Of a stretch of 32,000 bases of DNA, positions 1 through 9,850 are shown piece by piece. The notes beneath the pieces are model-generated. The model saw only the letters and a list, made by a program, of their open reading frames with translations, made no database searches and had not been told where the DNA came from. Source of the stretch: Candidatus Saccharimonadota bacterium (lineage in GTDB: Bacteria; Patescibacteriota; Microgenomatia; UBA1406; GWC2-37-13); assembly GCA_016699265.1 (NCBI GenBank), contig CP064967.1, positions 360,001 through 392,000 on the forward strand, given 5' to 3'. The position numbers and the translations under genes were made by a program. The stretch's first letter is position 1. Each line of letters starts with the position of its first letter.

Positions 1-287
1 TCCTTAACTATGCTCTTTTTTATTCCTTTTCGTGCTTCCTTCTGCTTTTTATCTTCTTGATACTGGAACTTCTTAAAATCTATTAGTTTTGCGACTGGTG
101 GCTTTGCATTTGGTGCAATCAGAACCAAATCTACCTCTTGATCGATCGCAAGCCTCATTGCCTCCTCTTTTGAAAGCAGACCCACCTGTTTACTTTCGTG
201 ATCTACAACCCGTAACGGTGATACGTTAATGTTGTGATTAATCGTATAGTGTTTCTTTTGGGGTCGAGGTGCTGGGTAATTTCTCAA
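1..287 (-). CDS. infC: translation initiation factor IF-3, 5' part (gene continues past the left edge)
   Basis: Absent from the ORF track because it runs off the window edge. Hand translation of the minus strand gives ..INHNINVSPLRVVDHESKQVGLLSKEEAMRLAIDQEVDLVLIAPNAKPPVAKLIDFKKFQYQEDKKQKEARKGIKK.., the IF-3 N-domain plus Lys-rich linker pattern. It lies directly downstream of thrS, the canonical thrS-infC order. There is no in-frame ATG. A candidate TTG at 285-287 overlaps the thrS stop, so the start is uncertain. Confidence 0.85.
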   Translation of the reverse strand, partial: MRNYPAPRPQKKHYTINHNINVSPLRVVDHESKQVGLLSKEEAMRLAIDQEVDLVLIAPNAKPPVAKLIDFKKFQYQEDKKQKEARKGIKKSIVK

Positions 288-1495
288 ATAGATTGTAAAT
301 GAGTCTTAATAAATTCTTTAACCTTCATAAGACCCAGATCTTTGCCTTCTCTGCTTCGAACCGCAACACTTAGTTCCGATTCCTGCATTTCTTTATCCCC
401 AATTATAATCATAAATGGGACTTTTTGCAACGTGGTCTCGCGTATTTTAGCGCCTAGTGGCTTATCGTCTCCATTAATCTCGACTCTCATATCGACCTTC
501 AACAGTTCTTGAAAGACTTCCTGTGCCTTTTCATTGTGTTTCTCCGACACAGGAAGAACCGCAACCTGAACCGGAGCCAACCAGAAAGGGAAAAAACCTT
601 GCGTGTGCTCAATATAGACTGATAAAAAGCGCTCGATTGATCCCAAAAGTGCTTTATGTATCATGATCGGAGTCTTTTCTGTCCCGTCGGGAGCAACATA
701 GGAGATTTTAAATCTAGCTGGCTGTACGAAGTCTAGTTGCTCAGTTGCCACCTGCCACTCACGTCCTTGAGAATCAGTTGCCATAATATCGATCTTGGGT
801 GCATAAAAAGCCGCTTCTCCCTCTGCTACAAAGTACTCAAGACCTGACTTTTTAGCCACTTTTTCCATAATTTCCTGGGACTGTTTCCACTGCTCATTGG
901 TCCCTAAGTAATGAGATGTGTCTTTTGAGTCCCTAAATGAAAGTCGAAGTTTGAACTGAAGATCGAGCAGTCTGTACATCGTCTTTACCATCTCAACGAT
1001 TTTTTCAAGTTCCTCCTCTACCTGATCCATGGTACAAAAAACATGAGCATCATCCTGCGTGGCCGAACGAACTCTGTTGAGTCCTCCCAGTTCCCCACTT
1101 TTTTCATCTCTGTAGACAGTTGTTGTTTCGTAGTAGCGAATTGGGAGATCTCGGTAGCTTCTTGGGTTTGAGGCATAAATCTGGATATGATGAGGGCAGC
1201 TCATTGGTTTTAGAATGAACTTATCATCGGTCTCCTGACTTGTAACCAAAAACAATTCCTTCCCAAATTTATCCCAGTGTCCAGAGTTTTTATAGAGCTC
1301 TTCTTTTGCAATATGAGGGATCCAGACCTTTTTATACCCAGCTTCTCGCTGAAGTTTTTCAGAGAGTCCCGCAAGAAGATCTCGTAGAATGGTTCCTTTT
1401 GGAGTAAAAAGTGGAAGGCCTGAGCCAACGAGATCGGAAAAAGTAAATAAATCCATCTCTCGACCAATCTGTCTGTGATCTTTCATGTCTGCCAT
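284..1495 (-). CDS. thrS: threonyl-tRNA synthetase, catalytic core plus anticodon-binding domain only (403 aa)
   Basis: It aligns by eye with E. coli ThrRS from about residue 242 to the end. Shared motifs include DHRxIGxxxDLF, KPMSCPHH, YRDLP, RVRxxTQDDAHxFC, FYxPKID, QLDFxxPxRF, HxAxLGSxERF, FPxWLAPVQV and the C-terminal anticodon-binding region. A different ORF ends 8 nt upstream, so no TGS or editing domain is attached. Confidence 0.95.
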   Translation of the reverse strand: MADMKDHRQIGREMDLFTFSDLVGSGLPLFTPKGTILRDLLAGLSEKLQREAGYKKVWIPHIAKEELYKNSGHWDKFGKELFLVTSQETDDKFILKPMSCPHHIQIYASNPRSYRDLPIRYYETTTVYRDEKSGELGGLNRVRSATQDDAHVFCTMDQVEEELEKIVEMVKTMYRLLDLQFKLRLSFRDSKDTSHYLGTNEQWKQSQEIMEKVAKKSGLEYFVAEGEAAFYAPKIDIMATDSQGREWQVATEQLDFVQPARFKISYVAPDGTEKTPIMIHKALLGSIERFLSVYIEHTQGFFPFWLAPVQVAVLPVSEKHNEKAQEVFQELLKVDMRVEINGDDKPLGAKIRETTLQKVPFMIIIGDKEMQESELSVAVRSREGKDLGLMKVKEFIKTHLQSI

Positions 1496-1503
1496 AAACT
1501 TTA

Positions 1504-2472
1504 TTATACAGAAGGTGAGTAAATACTGGCGCCGTCCTCAACCGCCTCCTTAAGATTTGAAATAATAAATGGAAGTCGGTGCGCAATCGGTGCGTTAGGA
1601 TCGTTGAGTATCCCAGAAAATACATTTTCAATTTCAAAATATTTTGTAAACTCAGCCCGTCTATGCGGAGGAACTCCAAAAAGTATCCCAAAAGCTTGCA
1701 TGACCGGAATTCTATACGGAGCTGACTTAACCGTAGAGATATTACCTGCTTCCCTAAGTAGCTGAGGATTGAAGTCTCCATCTTTTAGCGACTCTATAAT
1801 AGATACAACTATAGACTCTTCAAGTTGCTGTTCGCCCAGAAGTGCTACAAAAAGTCTTGAATATTTTTCCACCACTTTGTCACGTATTGCAGACTCCGTT
1901 AGCAAAGTAAGCAGCGCTGAAGAAAGCCGAGTTCTAGATATTAGTGGATTTCTTCGGCCAAGTCTATCCGTGCCCATAGCTAGGCGCACCTGATCGGCTA
2001 TCTTTTTTTTGATAGTCTTATTTGGCTTATCGAAACCTGCTTTTACAAGCATGTTTTCAGTTTCGCGTTGAAACTCTTCTAACTGAGATTCAGATATCTC
2101 AGTGGTTCTAAAATGTCGAAGTTTGCCTCGAATAAACTCGTCCAATTCCTGTATCCTATTTGCAATAACCCCCGTTTTATCATGCTTTCCCAAAACTTCG
2201 ACTGTTGAGCCGGTCAAACTTTCAATTGAGCTATGAGGTGACCACCTTTTTAAGGCTACCTCAGGATCTCTAGCTGTGCGATAGCTAGCCAACCATAGAT
2301 GACCATCAAATGGAGAATATCTGACCCCATCTTCAACTGGGAATACACGCGGTAGTCCTTCAACCCAGTTGTTGACCGGATTTTCAGCTACGACTTCAAA
2401 CTTCCTATGTATTAATCCTTTAGCTTTATCTTGGGGATGCTTTCCGAGAATTCTGTCTTCAACTCCTGCCAT
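1504..2472 (-). CDS. hypothetical protein (322 aa), no family recognised
   Basis: Long ORF tightly packed between neighbouring genes on the same strand, with non-repetitive composition. Confidence 0.7.
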   Translation of the reverse strand: MAGVEDRILGKHPQDKAKGLIHRKFEVVAENPVNNWVEGLPRVFPVEDGVRYSPFDGHLWLASYRTARDPEVALKRWSPHSSIESLTGSTVEVLGKHDKTGVIANRIQELDEFIRGKLRHFRTTEISESQLEEFQRETENMLVKAGFDKPNKTIKKKIADQVRLAMGTDRLGRRNPLISRTRLSSALLTLLTESAIRDKVVEKYSRLFVALLGEQQLEESIVVSIIESLKDGDFNPQLLREAGNISTVKSAPYRIPVMQAFGILFGVPPHRRAEFTKYFEIENVFSGILNDPNAPIAHRLPFIISNLKEAVEDGASIYSPSV

Positions 2473-2714: not shown

Positions 2715-3604
2715 TTATACATTATATCATTAAGGACTGTTCTGACGGTCTGCTTCCACCTTTTCGTTTTTATGCGATCAATGAATGTTTCCTTTTTACA
2801 TATAAGACTTACCGCATGGACATCGTCCGTGGTTGGTATCAACGTATCATTCGACTGAACATACATTATTGAAAGAGGATTTGACAGATGATCGAGTCCG
2901 AGACCGTGACCCAGTTCATGTTCGATGGTATGAATGAGTTCTTGTTGACTGTTGTTATAGTATATTGATATCGTTTTAGAGGCAGATTCGAATAATCCTT
3001 CTTCTGGTTTAGACTTCACCACGGTTTGAAGAGTAGTTATGTTGCCATTCAGTTGTTCTATTTTTGTGTTTATATCGTTAGTGGTAAGCTGTAGGGTACG
3101 GGCCTCAGCACTAATCTGCTTAGTCAACTGTTCAAGCTCTGTCTGTTCGGCTACGAGCTTGCCATACTCCTCCTCTGTTTGTGTTGAGCTTTTATTCCAG
3201 TTACTTACCTTATCATTAAATGACTGTACTTTTTTATCCAGCTCATCTGAACGTTTTTTAAAGTCGTCAATTCTCGACTGAAGCGTCGACTTGTCTTGAT
3301 TCACTGCGCTTTTTTCAGTGTTGACCTCCGAGGCTATTGCCTGTCTTTCGTCGTAAACCATCTGAATGGTAATTGGTTTCTCTGCTGTTGGATTGTAGGT
3401 GAACAAATCTTGTCCCGTTGCCGTCTCCCAGTACCGCTCCGCCTCCTTAATGTTCTCAAGAACCTGCATTCTTGTAAGATTGAATCTGGAATCAATGCTT
3501 CCAATTGTATAGCTCACAGTCTTGTCGCAGATATTTGGAAGTGGATAATAATATGCAAAACCCATCATTCCTAAAATAATTGCCAGATACACAATCCACC
3601 TCAT
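2711..3604 (-). CDS. membrane-anchored matrixin/metzincin-like zinc metalloprotease with a central coiled-coil segment
   Basis: HELGHGLGLDH (HExxHxxGxxH) is followed by SIMY (Met-turn). There is an N-terminal TM helix. A roughly 130-aa Q/E/K/T-rich heptad-like segment (residues about 95-225) lies between the N-terminal region and the catalytic motif. Confidence 0.8.
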   Translation of the reverse strand: MRWIVYLAIILGMMGFAYYYPLPNICDKTVSYTIGSIDSRFNLTRMQVLENIKEAERYWETATGQDLFTYNPTAEKPITIQMVYDERQAIASEVNTEKSAVNQDKSTLQSRIDDFKKRSDELDKKVQSFNDKVSNWNKSSTQTEEEYGKLVAEQTELEQLTKQISAEARTLQLTTNDINTKIEQLNGNITTLQTVVKSKPEEGLFESASKTISIYYNNSQQELIHTIEHELGHGLGLDHLSNPLSIMYVQSNDTLIPTTDDVHAVSLICKKETFIDRIKTKRWKQTVRTVLNDIMYK

Positions 3605-3689: not shown

Positions 3690-4127
3690 CTAAATGCCCT
3701 GCTGTTTCAATCTCTCGATCTTCCGTTTCCTCTCCCATGCAACTTTCCAATCAACTCCCGATTTGCCAGGTGGAAATAGCAGAGAATATAATTCTTCAAG
3801 CATTAATTTCATTTGATCATGCTTTATCATCTGACGCAGTGTCGGAACGATTCCATTACTACGCTCCATAATGATTCTGTATTTTGAGACAGTCGCCATG
3901 GAAACTTTCAGCACAAAACAAATTGTCCTATGATCAATGTCCTTTAAAATTAGATACATAATGGCTATTCTTTTCGCGACCATAAGGCGTTCTATAGGCG
4001 ATAAGAGATCTATGACAGTTTCGTTAAATGCAATTTTTGAATTTTTTTTGCCAACTACTTCAAAAAAAAGATCCAACAATTTGTTTAAAGTTTCCTCGGG
4101 AAGTTTAAAGCGAGATACTCTTACCAT
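3690..4127 (-). CDS. TrpR/YerC-YecD-like helix-turn-helix protein (145 aa)
   Basis: LLSPIERLMVAKRIAIMYLILKDIDHRTICFVLKVSMATVSKYRII matches the Trp-repressor-related pattern (LxPxE..A.R..I...L......I......S.ATxS+). The family call rests on motif recognition only. Confidence 0.6.
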   Translation of the reverse strand: MVRVSRFKLPEETLNKLLDLFFEVVGKKNSKIAFNETVIDLLSPIERLMVAKRIAIMYLILKDIDHRTICFVLKVSMATVSKYRIIMERSNGIVPTLRQMIKHDQMKLMLEELYSLLFPPGKSGVDWKVAWERKRKIERLKQQGI

Positions 4128-4130
4128 ATA

Positions 4131-4156
4131 GATACTATTATTTAAATAATAGTATC
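4131..4156. promoter_or_regulatory. perfect 26-bp palindrome, copy B; candidate operator overlapping the promoter of the TrpR-like gene
   Basis: Identical to 3662-3687. It ends 3 nt upstream of the ATG at 4127, and there is no Shine-Dalgarno sequence between them. Confidence 0.6.
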
Positions 4157-4262
4157 GGTCAATAGATTATATGCTACAAAGTGAAGGGTTTAGATTGATT
4201 GGTGGCTTTAAAAAGAGTGATGTACTACGTTCCTTTCCAAAGGCGTGGTAAAATTAGAGCTT

Positions 4263-4336
4263 GGACTCGTAGCTCAGTTGGTTAGAGCGTTGCATTGACA
4301 TTGCAGAGGTCACAGGTTCGAGCCCTGTCGGGTCCA
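4263..4336 (+). tRNA. tRNA-Val (anticodon GAC)
   Basis: Hand-folded cloverleaf: acceptor GGACTCG/CGGGTCC, D arm GCTC-AGTTGGTTA-GAGC, anticodon arm TTGCA-TTGACAT-TGCAG, T arm ACAGG-TTCGAGC-CCTGT, discriminator A. CCA is not encoded. An extended -10 (TGGTAAAAT, 4246-4254) lies just upstream. Confidence 0.9.
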
Positions 4337-4358
4337 CACAAGAAGTATAATAAGGTTA

Positions 4359-4457
4359 GCGGACGTAGCTTCCCGATTTCGATCGGGATCCCGATGGCAG
4401 CGACCATCGGGGCAATTGGTAAAGCTTATAGCTTCCAATTTCGCTACGATCTAAATA
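4359..4457 (+). other. degenerate tRNA-Asp 5'-half duplicate carrying a 42-nt double-hairpin insertion; tRNA-derived structured element
   Basis: The first 12 nt (GCGGACGTAGCT) equal the 5' end of tRNA-Asp at 4458. After removing 4371-4412, the sequence CAATTGGTAAAGC continues the tRNA-Asp D arm with 2 mismatches. No T arm or 3' acceptor strand follows. Three hairpins are present (4371-4388, 4390-4411, about 4414-4440). A TATAAT (4346-4351) lies 7 nt upstream. Confidence 0.6.
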
Positions 4458-4530
4458 GCGGACGTAGCTCAATTGGCAGAGCACTTCCCTGTCACGGAAG
4501 GGGTTGCGGGTTCGAGTCCCGTCGTTCGCG
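4458..4530 (+). tRNA. tRNA-Asp (anticodon GTC)
   Basis: Cloverleaf: acceptor GCGGACG/CGTTCGC, D arm GCTC-AATTGGCA-GAGC, anticodon arm CTTCC-CTGTCAC-GGAAG, T arm GCGGG-TTCGAGT-CCCGT, discriminator G. CCA is not encoded. Confidence 0.9.
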
Positions 4531-4578
4531 CAGTTAGTTTAAGGTTGATTTTGATCTTCAGAAGAGTACTCTTGTACA

Positions 4579-4806
4579 ATGAAGCTCCTGCAAGTGCCAA
4601 ATGCGCCACTTATTATTGCCATAAGTGGATTAATAATCAGCAAAGTGCCTAACGTTCTTCTTCATAAGCTAGGAGCAACAACATATACGATAGCAATCAT
4701 CTTATGGGCATATGAAGAAATAACTTCAGGGATTAATTGGGCTCGTAAACTACTTGGATTAGTGGTAATTTTTACAGTAGCATATTCACTCTTCAATCAA
4801 TTGTAA
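4579..4806 (+). CDS. small membrane protein (75 aa, 2-3 TM helices)
   Basis: Hydrophobic ORF with no competing ORF. No family recognised. Confidence 0.5.
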   Translation: MKLLQVPNAPLIIAISGLIISKVPNVLLHKLGATTYTIAIILWAYEEITSGINWARKLLGLVVIFTVAYSLFNQL

Positions 4807-6390: not shown

Positions 6391-6410
6391 CCTGCCTGCC
6401 GGCAGGCAGG
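6391..6410. repeat. perfect 20-bp GC-rich palindrome CCTGCCTGCCGGCAGGCAGG flanked by 7-bp direct repeats ACTTAGA (6384-6390, 6411-6417)
   Basis: Read directly. A near-identical copy lies at 14825-14843. Confidence 0.9.
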
Positions 6411-9378: not shown

Positions 9379-9501
9379 CGTGCGATAGAGTATCCCGATT
9401 TCGATCGGGATGATGAGAGTTCGATTCCCTCTGGGTGCACGTGCGATAGAGTATCCCGATTTCGATCAGGATGATGAGAGTTCGATTCCTCTCTGGGTGC
9501 A
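9379..9501 (+). repeat. two tandem tRNA-Arg-derived partial copies (61 and 62 nt) with the anticodon arm replaced by a UUCG hairpin
   Basis: Each unit reads CGTGC-GATAGAGTA-[TCCCGATTTCGATCGGGA]-TGATGAGAGTTCGATTCCCTCTGGGTGCA. The flanks are identical to the 3' D-loop and to the variable loop, T arm and 3' acceptor of the adjacent tRNA. Copy 2 has one substitution and one 1-nt insertion. Confidence 0.85.
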
Positions 9502-9586: not shown

Positions 9587-9850
9587 ATGAACAAAACGTC
9601 TGACGTTTTGCATGAAAAATTCTACGTTTACACTCTCTTAAGTTTAAAAGATGGCAAGTTTTACTCTGGTTATACTAATGACTTGAAGAATAGACTAGCG
9701 GAACATGTAGCTGGCAGAGTTAAATCAACCAGATTACGTGCGCCATTTAAGCTTATACACTATGAATATTTTGTAAATATGTCAGATGCAAAAGCGCGAG
9801 AAAAATTTTTAAAAAGTGGATTTGGTGGAAACAACTTAAAGAATCTTTGA
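9587..9850 (+). CDS. GIY-YIG nuclease-superfamily small protein (87 aa)
   Basis: FYVYTLLSLKDGKFYSGYTNDLKNRLAEH carries the GIY...YxG...R..xH signature of stand-alone GIY-YIG proteins. Confidence 0.85.
   Translation: MNKTSDVLHEKFYVYTLLSLKDGKFYSGYTNDLKNRLAEHVAGRVKSTRLRAPFKLIHYEYFVNMSDAKAREKFLKSGFGGNNLKNL

Follow-up and report, generated by a model that had tools for sequence, protein, structure and literature searches.

A hairpin-split partial tRNA-Asp copy ahead of the only tRNA-Asp gene of a Candidatus Saccharimonadota genome, probably a nuclease-less unit of a tRNA-associated selfish-DNA system

The window analyzed here is a stretch of 32,000 nucleotides (nt) from a Candidatus Saccharimonadota bacterium (contig CP064967.1, positions 360,001 to 392,000, forward strand). 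The genome, referred to as G000, is a single contig of 928,688 bp with 40.9% G+C and 45 tRNA genes, which suggests an ultra-small bacterium of CPR type; genomes of relatives are called G001, G002, G003, G005 and so on, and extracted loci or contigs L0xx. The subject of this report is a non-coding unit of 99 nt at window positions 4359-4457, which stands directly ahead of the sole tRNA-Asp gene of the genome and consists of a partial copy of that gene, a double-hairpin repeat and an inverted tail. The locus is composed of the following features:

4263-4337, forward strand: tRNA-Val(GAC), the upstream neighbor (ARAGORN; Rfam tRNA, 68.8 bits)
4346-4351, forward strand: TATAAT, a -10 box 7 nt ahead of the partial tRNA copy (sequence)
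4357-4370, forward strand: first copy of a direct repeat, TAGCGGACGTAGCT, of which bases 4359-4370 equal tRNA-Asp nt 1-12 (repeat search, 100% identity, spacing 99)
4371-4412, forward strand: 42-nt double-hairpin element with hairpin A at 4371-4388 and hairpin B at 4390-4411 (nhmmer profile match, E 3.2e-9)
4413-4425, forward strand: resumed tRNA-Asp copy, nt 13-25, 11 of 13 identical (repeat search; G000/G002 alignment)
4426-4457, forward strand: 32-nt tail that repeats the partial tRNA 5′ half imperfectly and in inverted orientation (fold; inverted repeat)
4458-4531, forward strand: tRNA-Asp(GTC), functional, the only copy in the genome (ARAGORN on the window and the whole genome; Rfam, 68.1 bits)

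An initial annotation, made from the window alone, had noted that positions 4359-4370 (GCGGACGTAGCT) are identical to the first 12 nt of tRNA-Asp. This holds, and the repeat really spans 14 nt, occurring at 4357-4370 and again at 4456-4469, where the working tRNA-Asp begins. After the 42-nt block the copy resumes with CAATTGGTAAAGC, compared with CAATTGGCAGAGC in the gene (4470-4482). The block itself contains TCCCGAT-TTCG-ATCGGGA (hairpin A) and CCCGATGG-CAGCGA-CCATCGGG (hairpin B), as had been claimed, and the earlier view of the element as a partial, degenerate tRNA-Asp copy that a double-hairpin insert interrupts between nt 12 and 13 holds as well. No short duplication is seen flanking the 42-nt block; the 14-nt repeat flanks the whole 99-nt unit. 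Neither ARAGORN nor Rfam at gathering threshold calls a tRNA within 4359-4457, in agreement with the earlier statement that the copy lacks a T arm and a 3′ acceptor strand. Rfam at E≤10 on 4330-4465 returns chance-level matches alone (CopA-like, 16 bits; isrL, 10 bits) and no tRNA.

The tail (…TTCGCTACGATYTAA) resembles the reverse complement of the partial 5′ half at about 75% identity, and an inverted repeat search gives it 82% complementarity to 4463-4479, in the 5′ part of the real tRNA-Asp. No further copy of it is found in the genome by blastn-short. In the predicted fold the tail pairs with 4414-4425, giving the third hairpin that had been proposed earlier, and with 4361-4369, giving an outer stem in addition. 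The 99-nt unit folds as a four-way junction at -43.2 kcal/mol; shuffled sequences average -25.5, and none of 200 folds as well (z -5.31). When the leader is folded together with tRNA-Asp, z is -3.6; the minimum-energy fold has the partial 5′ acceptor strand rivaling the real one for the real 3′ acceptor strand, and in the centroid the two domains stay separate. The TATAAT ahead of the unit was confirmed at 4346-4351, and a consensus promoter scan leaves it uncalled, as the scan requires a -35 match and none is present. Within 4100-4700 there are 0 terminator-like sites (a GC-rich hairpin followed by a T run was sought), and a reading of the unit as an intrinsic terminator or attenuator was rejected on that basis.

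The 42-nt block belongs to a dispersed repeat family. A profile built from 10 copies detects 18 loci at E<0.05 in the genome (nhmmer), including the Asp copy. The zone within 150 nt of tRNA genes amounts to 1.2% of the genome and holds five of the 18 (P 2e-6), and a sixth tRNA-linked locus is inside the tRNA-Glu cassette described below; the remaining copies mostly adjoin gene ends within short intergenic gaps. For GC-rich perfect hairpins overall, 14 of 97 are near tRNAs (P 2e-11). In a hairpin census the stems group into families whose arms are conserved while their loops vary; (T)CCCGAT...ATCGGG(A) is the most frequent. Many copies are double, comprising hairpin A, a T and hairpin B, with the consensus TTTT CCCGAT-loop-ATCGGGA TCCYCGATTCTGAGGAATCGGGRC. 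The pattern CCCGAY-N3-9-RTCGGGATYC yields 16 matches in G000, 7 in G003, 6 in G016 and none in 32 of 41 related genomes, and the reversed control gives 0. The earlier proposal that hairpin A is the same module as that seen in the tRNA-Arg repeats of the window is borne out: the 18-mer recurs at 9393 (exact) and 9454 (1 mismatch), with 3 matches vs 0.01 expected, and it is also found at genome position 711,249.

In each of the cases linked to a tRNA gene, the element splits a tRNA-like loop of a partial copy and not the working gene. The split, marked here by a caret, falls mostly at T^CAATT:

Beside tRNA-Ala(CGC): GGAGTT^CAATTC
Beside tRNA-Arg(CCT): GGGGTT^CAATTCC
Beside tRNA-Leu(CAA): GAGGGTT^CGACTCC, a T^CGA variant
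Beside tRNA-Pro(CGG): GGGTT^CAATTCCC
Beside tRNA-Val(CAC): CTGGTT^CAAATCCAG, in a T arm foreign to the neighboring tRNA
At tRNA-Asp: GCT^CAATTGG, in a D-loop copy, the others being partial T-loop copies

Two near-identical 56-nt double-hairpin variants (TCCCGACGAATTTCATTCG[C/T]GCGGGATCCCGTATGAAAACTATCATCGGGA) are present in G000 at 487258-487317 and 309319-309377, where they split partial T-loop copies immediately 3′ of tRNA-Val(CAC) and tRNA-Pro(CGG).

Partial tRNA copies of this kind recur in the genome, some of them in company with a small nuclease gene. A tblastn search identifies six GIY-YIG open reading frames (ORFs) of about 75-87 amino acids (aa) in G000, five of which adjoin tRNA genes (Leu-CAG, Ser-GGA, Glu-TTC, Arg-TCG and Asn). 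The two that were tested (Arg and Glu) match Pfam PF01541 with E of about 1e-14 to 1e-18 (Arg 5e-14), and the nearest solved structures to these proteins are UPF0213 proteins (1zg2, 1ywl) and SLX1. Hairpins flank every tRNA-linked GIY-YIG ORF in G000. In all, about 12 of the 45 tRNA genes have hairpin-split partial copies, five of them with a GIY-YIG ORF. One such locus is found within the window:

9379-9501, forward strand: two tandem 61-nt partial copies of tRNA-Arg(TCG), with hairpin A replacing the anticodon arm (sequence)
9587-9850, forward strand: 87-aa single-domain GIY-YIG ORF, 3′ of the tRNA-Arg units (tblastn; Pfam PF01541)

Three cassettes are located 5′ of their tRNA and share one order of parts: a -10 box, tRNA nt 1-11 or 1-12 (1-24 for Leu), one or two GC-rich hairpins, the resumed D loop, an ORF beginning with ATG, and the intact tRNA. 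The Glu cassette is split after nt 11 and reads GGCCCCGTCGT, two CCGAT-type hairpins, then CTAGCGGCC. The Ser-GGA cassette is split after nt 12 and reads GGAGAGGTCGCA, CCCCAAAGGGG, CCCCGTTGGGG, then TAGTGGCC. In the Leu(CAG) cassette the layout is alike, but the split comes after nt 24 and holds one hairpin. An ORF-less form stands ahead of tRNA-Ser(TGA), where a 54-nt leader (699377-699430, minus strand) consists of GGAGAGGTCGCA, CCCCGAAGGGG, CCCCGTTGGGG, TAGTGGCCT and GTCACAATTTA; it is split after nt 12, and its module is almost that of the Ser(GGA) cassette front (227200-227263). Related genomes contain similar arrangements. GIY-YIG genes are present in 39 of 41 relatives, with many paralogues, and in congeners they also adjoin tRNA genes, though other ones than in G000. 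In G014, a member of the same family, it is tRNA-Asp that has an ORF-bearing cassette, and a 48-nt hairpin occupies the D loop of the partial copy.

The Asp unit has a partial copy beside an intact tRNA and GC-rich hairpins within a tRNA loop. It shares the architecture of the Glu and Ser-GGA cassettes and thus lacks nothing of a cassette front end but the ORF: only 32 nt (4426-4457) separate the partial copy from tRNA-Asp, and tblastn with two GIY-YIG queries finds no GIY-YIG ORF there.

Other loci in G000 and one relative display further states of these arrangements. In G011, a relative of the same family, twelve tandem GIY-YIG ORF copies are found with a period of 357 nt (G011:C2:272-4396). 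In G000, a decayed cassette remnant (GTCGAGTTTGACTCGAC…AAAACGTCTGACGTTTT) lies on the minus strand 3′ of tRNA-Ala(TGC), at 410040-410200, and shares homology with the opening codons and the preceding 5′ untranslated region of the tRNA-Arg GIY-YIG cassette. At 418332-418475 tRNA-Thr(TGT) is represented by two partial copies of 71 nt in tandem, each made up of the anticodon arm, a CCCGACCTCAGTCGGG hairpin replacing the 5′ T stem, and then the 3′ end.

The distribution of the Asp unit among relatives is patchy. G003, the closest congener (80% nucleotide identity in flanking genes vs 76-77% for others), has a precisely empty site: the spacer, again AAGAAGTATAATAAGGTAA, leads straight into tRNA-Asp, with the same -10 box at the same 7 nt before the mature 5′ end. 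The unit is also missing in G001, G005 and 15 further relatives examined (17 beyond G003), in which tRNA-Asp is normal. G002, a more distant congener, has a homologous unit of 84% identity. Local synteny is kept there, but tRNA-Val is inverted and about 1.1 kb off, and hairpins A and B are decayed, with mismatches and a nested hairpin insert. The D-arm variant TAAAGC is common to the units of G000 and G002 and occurs in neither resident tRNA, and position 6 of the partial copy tracks the resident tRNA (C in G000, T in G002). Together these argue for a single origin, after which the 5′ repeat was homogenized to match the gene of its own genome.

Exact-pattern scans for the tail plus the tRNA start return G002 only from genome contigs, three metagenome contigs, and no match from viral contigs. 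In one metagenome strain, 99.65% identical to the window, two exact tandem 99-nt units are located between tRNA-Val and tRNA-Asp (L022, Ga0138256_10001540, reverse strand 2800-3500), and another metagenome contig holds at least 2 units. Two contigs from one other sample, L023 and L024, carry an identical unit and tRNA-Asp in other contexts. On L023, a 535-aa large serine recombinase (Resolvase, Recombinase and zinc ribbon; 169-1776, plus strand) ends against the unit-bearing tRNA-Asp, which looks like a mobile element integrated beside tRNA-Asp in another metagenome. L024 (OBLX010000401.1), 6 kb long, has the unit at both ends and an unrelated upstream flank; at one end its tRNA-Asp diverges from that of G000 after nt 70 (…CGTCGTTCTCCCCC). 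The interior of L024 (GNAT and ATP-grasp-like genes) has no DNA-level match in relatives, and its GNAT gene is 57% identical to the GNAT gene upstream of the G002 unit. L023 and L024 are suggestive of spread of the unit, short of proof, since the contigs end inside the repeat; their value as proof of horizontal transfer is weakened further because the downstream flank of L023 is explained by the serine-recombinase element.

Several known systems resemble parts of this arrangement. The Ssn family comprises single-domain GIY-YIG enzymes of about 94 aa that cut single-stranded DNA (ssDNA) beside hairpin repeats; these repeats (NTS/SRM) flank ssn genes and are dispersed genome-wide, and the sequence of their stem matters while that of the loop does not (Chenal et al., 2025; PMC11893778). 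G000 likewise has tiny single-domain GIY-YIG genes (about 85-95 aa for the two systems) with flanking and dispersed hairpins whose stems are conserved and whose loops are free. However, the hairpins of G000 are off the published SRM consensus, the Asp locus is without a nuclease gene, and tRNA genes are mentioned 0 times in the Ssn paper (PMC11893778). The degenerate SRM consensus has 6 matches in G000 vs 1-5 in shuffles, none of them a CCCGAT hairpin. Two mutually similar sites, 826481-826508 (plus strand) and about 716333-716360 (minus strand), fit a published Ssn-related motif (GTCATCCTCGCG…GCGGGGATCC) and are the only convincing SRM-like sites in the genome.

Another example is SegB of phage T4, a free-standing GIY-YIG homing endonuclease in a tRNA cluster that recognizes a conserved T-loop motif (PMC2330249). 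As in G000, a GIY-YIG nuclease is linked to tRNA genes and its presence varies among relatives, and the T-loop motif of SegB is the one broken by the hairpins in the partial tRNA copies of G000. This coincidence of motif and hairpin position may be read as suggestive and as nothing beyond that. SegB differs in being a larger, phage-borne enzyme that cuts dsDNA and has a DNA-binding part. Neither hairpin repeats nor partial tRNA copies have been reported with it, and the Asp unit is ORF-less.

Double-hairpin elements and GC clusters of fungal and sponge mitochondria (PMC2800124) are alike in being short GC-rich hairpins of an AT-rich compact genome, with conserved stems and variable loops. They can be tandem, are intergenic or in non-essential parts of RNA genes, stay in transcripts and are patchy among relatives (PMC2800124). 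Unlike the family described here, they are organellar, unrelated in sequence and without a reported bias to tRNA-like loops. REP/BIME and MITE-like repeats are also dispersed, mostly intergenic palindromes adjoining gene ends, but for the G000 family neither a RAYT or transposase partner nor a clear target-site duplication was found, and its bias to tRNA loci is strong. The sources of tRNA gene fragments named so far are integrases and CRISPR (PMC9897764). Fragments at integrase attachment (att) sites resemble the Asp unit as partial copies beside an intact gene (PMC9897764), whereas they are 3′ fragments located kilobases away together with an integrase, and the Asp unit is a 5′ fragment at 99 nt, split by hairpins. 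The literature search found no paper on hairpin-split partial tRNA copies with GIY-YIG genes.

The reading favored here, with a probability of about 0.6, is that 4359-4457 is a non-coding, nuclease-less unit of a tRNA-associated hairpin/GIY-YIG selfish-DNA system, to which no dedicated cellular function is assigned. From its layout we infer that it is a relic or a non-autonomous derivative of an ORF-bearing cassette. The initial annotation had interpreted the element as a structured leader of tRNA-Asp. Its account of the partial copy and hairpins stands, but a dedicated leader function is disfavored: the repeat family, the dozen or so tRNA loci at which the arrangement recurs, the patchiness and the change in copy number argue for selfish or neutral DNA.

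In the mechanism proposed, a 25-nt copy of the tRNA-Asp 5′ part, split by the 42-nt repeat and followed by the 32-nt inverted tail, would snap into the four-way junction. Since the TATAAT lies 7 nt ahead of the unit, the same distance as in the empty-site allele, the unit is expected to form the 5′ end of the primary transcript. Standing between the tRNA's own -10 box and tRNA-Asp, it would most probably be transcribed passively at the front of the precursor, tolerated as a leader and then trimmed away by RNase P, and the earlier precursor reading on these lines is plausible. The unit would persist, be lost or be amplified through recombination or slippage at the 14-nt direct repeats (in arrays, at the 99-nt repeats). 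Loss would leave a clean junction of promoter and tRNA, and unequal exchange would produce tandem arrays.

Several points weigh against this reading. Neither an ORF nor a recognizable ORF remnant was found in the 32-nt tail, so that derivation from an ORF-bearing cassette is argued from architecture alone. A frame ending in ...FATI and a stop, shared with G002, was not used as evidence, and an 11-nt match of the tail to the 'ASN' region of the Ser-cassette nuclease was discarded, as 11-mers recur about 12 times by chance. The units of G000 and G002 are 84% identical compared with 67-77% for flanking coding DNA, and the pairing of hairpin 3 is kept between them through two double (compensatory) changes; both hint at constraint or recent transfer. 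Finally, the succession of direct, inverted and direct copies could have arisen by a template switch during replication, without any cassette.

A broader and more tentative possibility is that such units are parasites of tRNA genes of a kind not yet described, with this one a non-autonomous, MITE-like member. In that case small Ssn-like GIY-YIG nucleases would target tRNA-gene DNA in its single-stranded state, at T^CAATT and similar loop motifs. Each element would arrive with a tRNA-like half and hairpins of its own and be copied in with the tRNA as homology anchor, and ORF-less units would spread between strains or amplify, with the nuclease supplied in trans from other tRNA cassettes. A related but somewhat more doubtful proposal treats the unit as a nuclease target or immunity allele. 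The hairpins would be recognition sites of the resident Ssn-like GIY-YIG nucleases, or would interrupt a recognized tRNA-loop motif, making the unit a non-autonomous partner that is copied into tRNA genes or protects them, with the nuclease acting in trans. Cleavage of ssDNA near hairpin repeats by Ssn-family enzymes (PMC11893778) is in keeping with this, as are the conserved stems and variable loops, the hairpins around every tRNA-linked GIY-YIG ORF, the correspondence between the split T^CAATT and the SegB T-loop motif (PMC2330249), and the identical unit beside an unrelated upstream flank in L024. It is set against hairpins that do not match the SRM consensus, which is itself not enriched, and proteins whose nearest solved structures are UPF0213 proteins and SLX1 and no characterized Ssn. 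The differing downstream flank of L023 is moreover a serine recombinase island beside the tRNA, and metagenome contigs that end inside repeats may be chimeric.

It is unlikely that the unit is a functional leader, that is, a four-way-junction RNA selected to control the folding, processing or stability of pre-tRNA-Asp, for instance with the partial 5′ half capturing the inverted tail and keeping it off the real tRNA. The fold is very stable alone and with the tRNA, the tail is complementary to the real 5′ part, and the unit is better conserved than its flanks, yet any palindromic DNA repeat is expected to be stable, and in the minimum-energy fold the partial acceptor strand competes with the real one. 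The two compensatory pairs in hairpin 3 speak for this leader, and the unit's absence in G003, the closest congener, and in 17 further relatives whose tRNA-Asp is normal speaks against it. So do the variation between 1 and 2 copies among near-identical strains, the decay of hairpins A and B in G002 and the presence of the same hairpin element at non-tRNA sites. More improbable still is a replication accident, in which a template switch at the tRNA 5′ end was followed by entry of the double-hairpin repeat into the spare copy, with no link to nuclease cassettes. This would fit the tail's resemblance to the reverse complement of the partial 5′ half, the missing ORF trace, and the lack of an inverted tail in the ORF-bearing cassettes and the Ser(TGA) unit, but the hairpin position (after nt 11-12) and the layout match those of Glu, Ser(GGA) and Ser(TGA), and TAAAGC, being in both units and neither resident tRNA, points to a single old origin followed by spread or retention. 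Integrase-mediated islands are a common source of tRNA fragments (PMC9897764), and the serine-recombinase element uses tRNA-Asp in L023. An att-site scar is nonetheless very improbable here and was rejected: the copied part is the 5′ end and not the 3′ end, at an offset of 99 nt, the repeats are only 87 nt apart, and there is no integrase within 3 kb.

About one quarter of the tRNA genes in this 0.93-Mb genome are accompanied by hairpin-split partial copies of themselves, five with a tiny GIY-YIG gene, and on the favored reading of a nuclease-less selfish unit the tRNA-Asp unit would be the nuclease-free form of such loci: compact, highly structured, tandemly amplifiable and joined to a tRNA precursor. 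Should the hairpins prove to be substrates of Ssn-like nucleases, a newly discovered enzyme family, genome-wide hairpin repeats and tRNA genes, until now treated apart from one another, would become linked. For annotation, such units would yield tRNA fragments and odd 'leaders' of the kind currently credited to integrases or CRISPR only.

Further hairpins were also observed. The palindrome CCTGCCTG-CCGG-CAGGCAGG at window positions 6391-6410 represents a second hairpin family, with copies at genome positions 128656 (in the Leu cassette), 136596, 734666 and 774640 and relatives of it at 154013, 178410 and 296302; one copy is within a partial tRNA-Ala(CGC) fragment. In G003, a 23-nt hairpin (TACGTTCA-GTTTACA-TGAACGTA) follows tRNA-Val together with a duplicated GTCCAC (L013, G003:C12, reverse strand 56-84), both of which are missing from G000. 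The feature resembles an inserted hairpin that duplicated 6 nt of its target.

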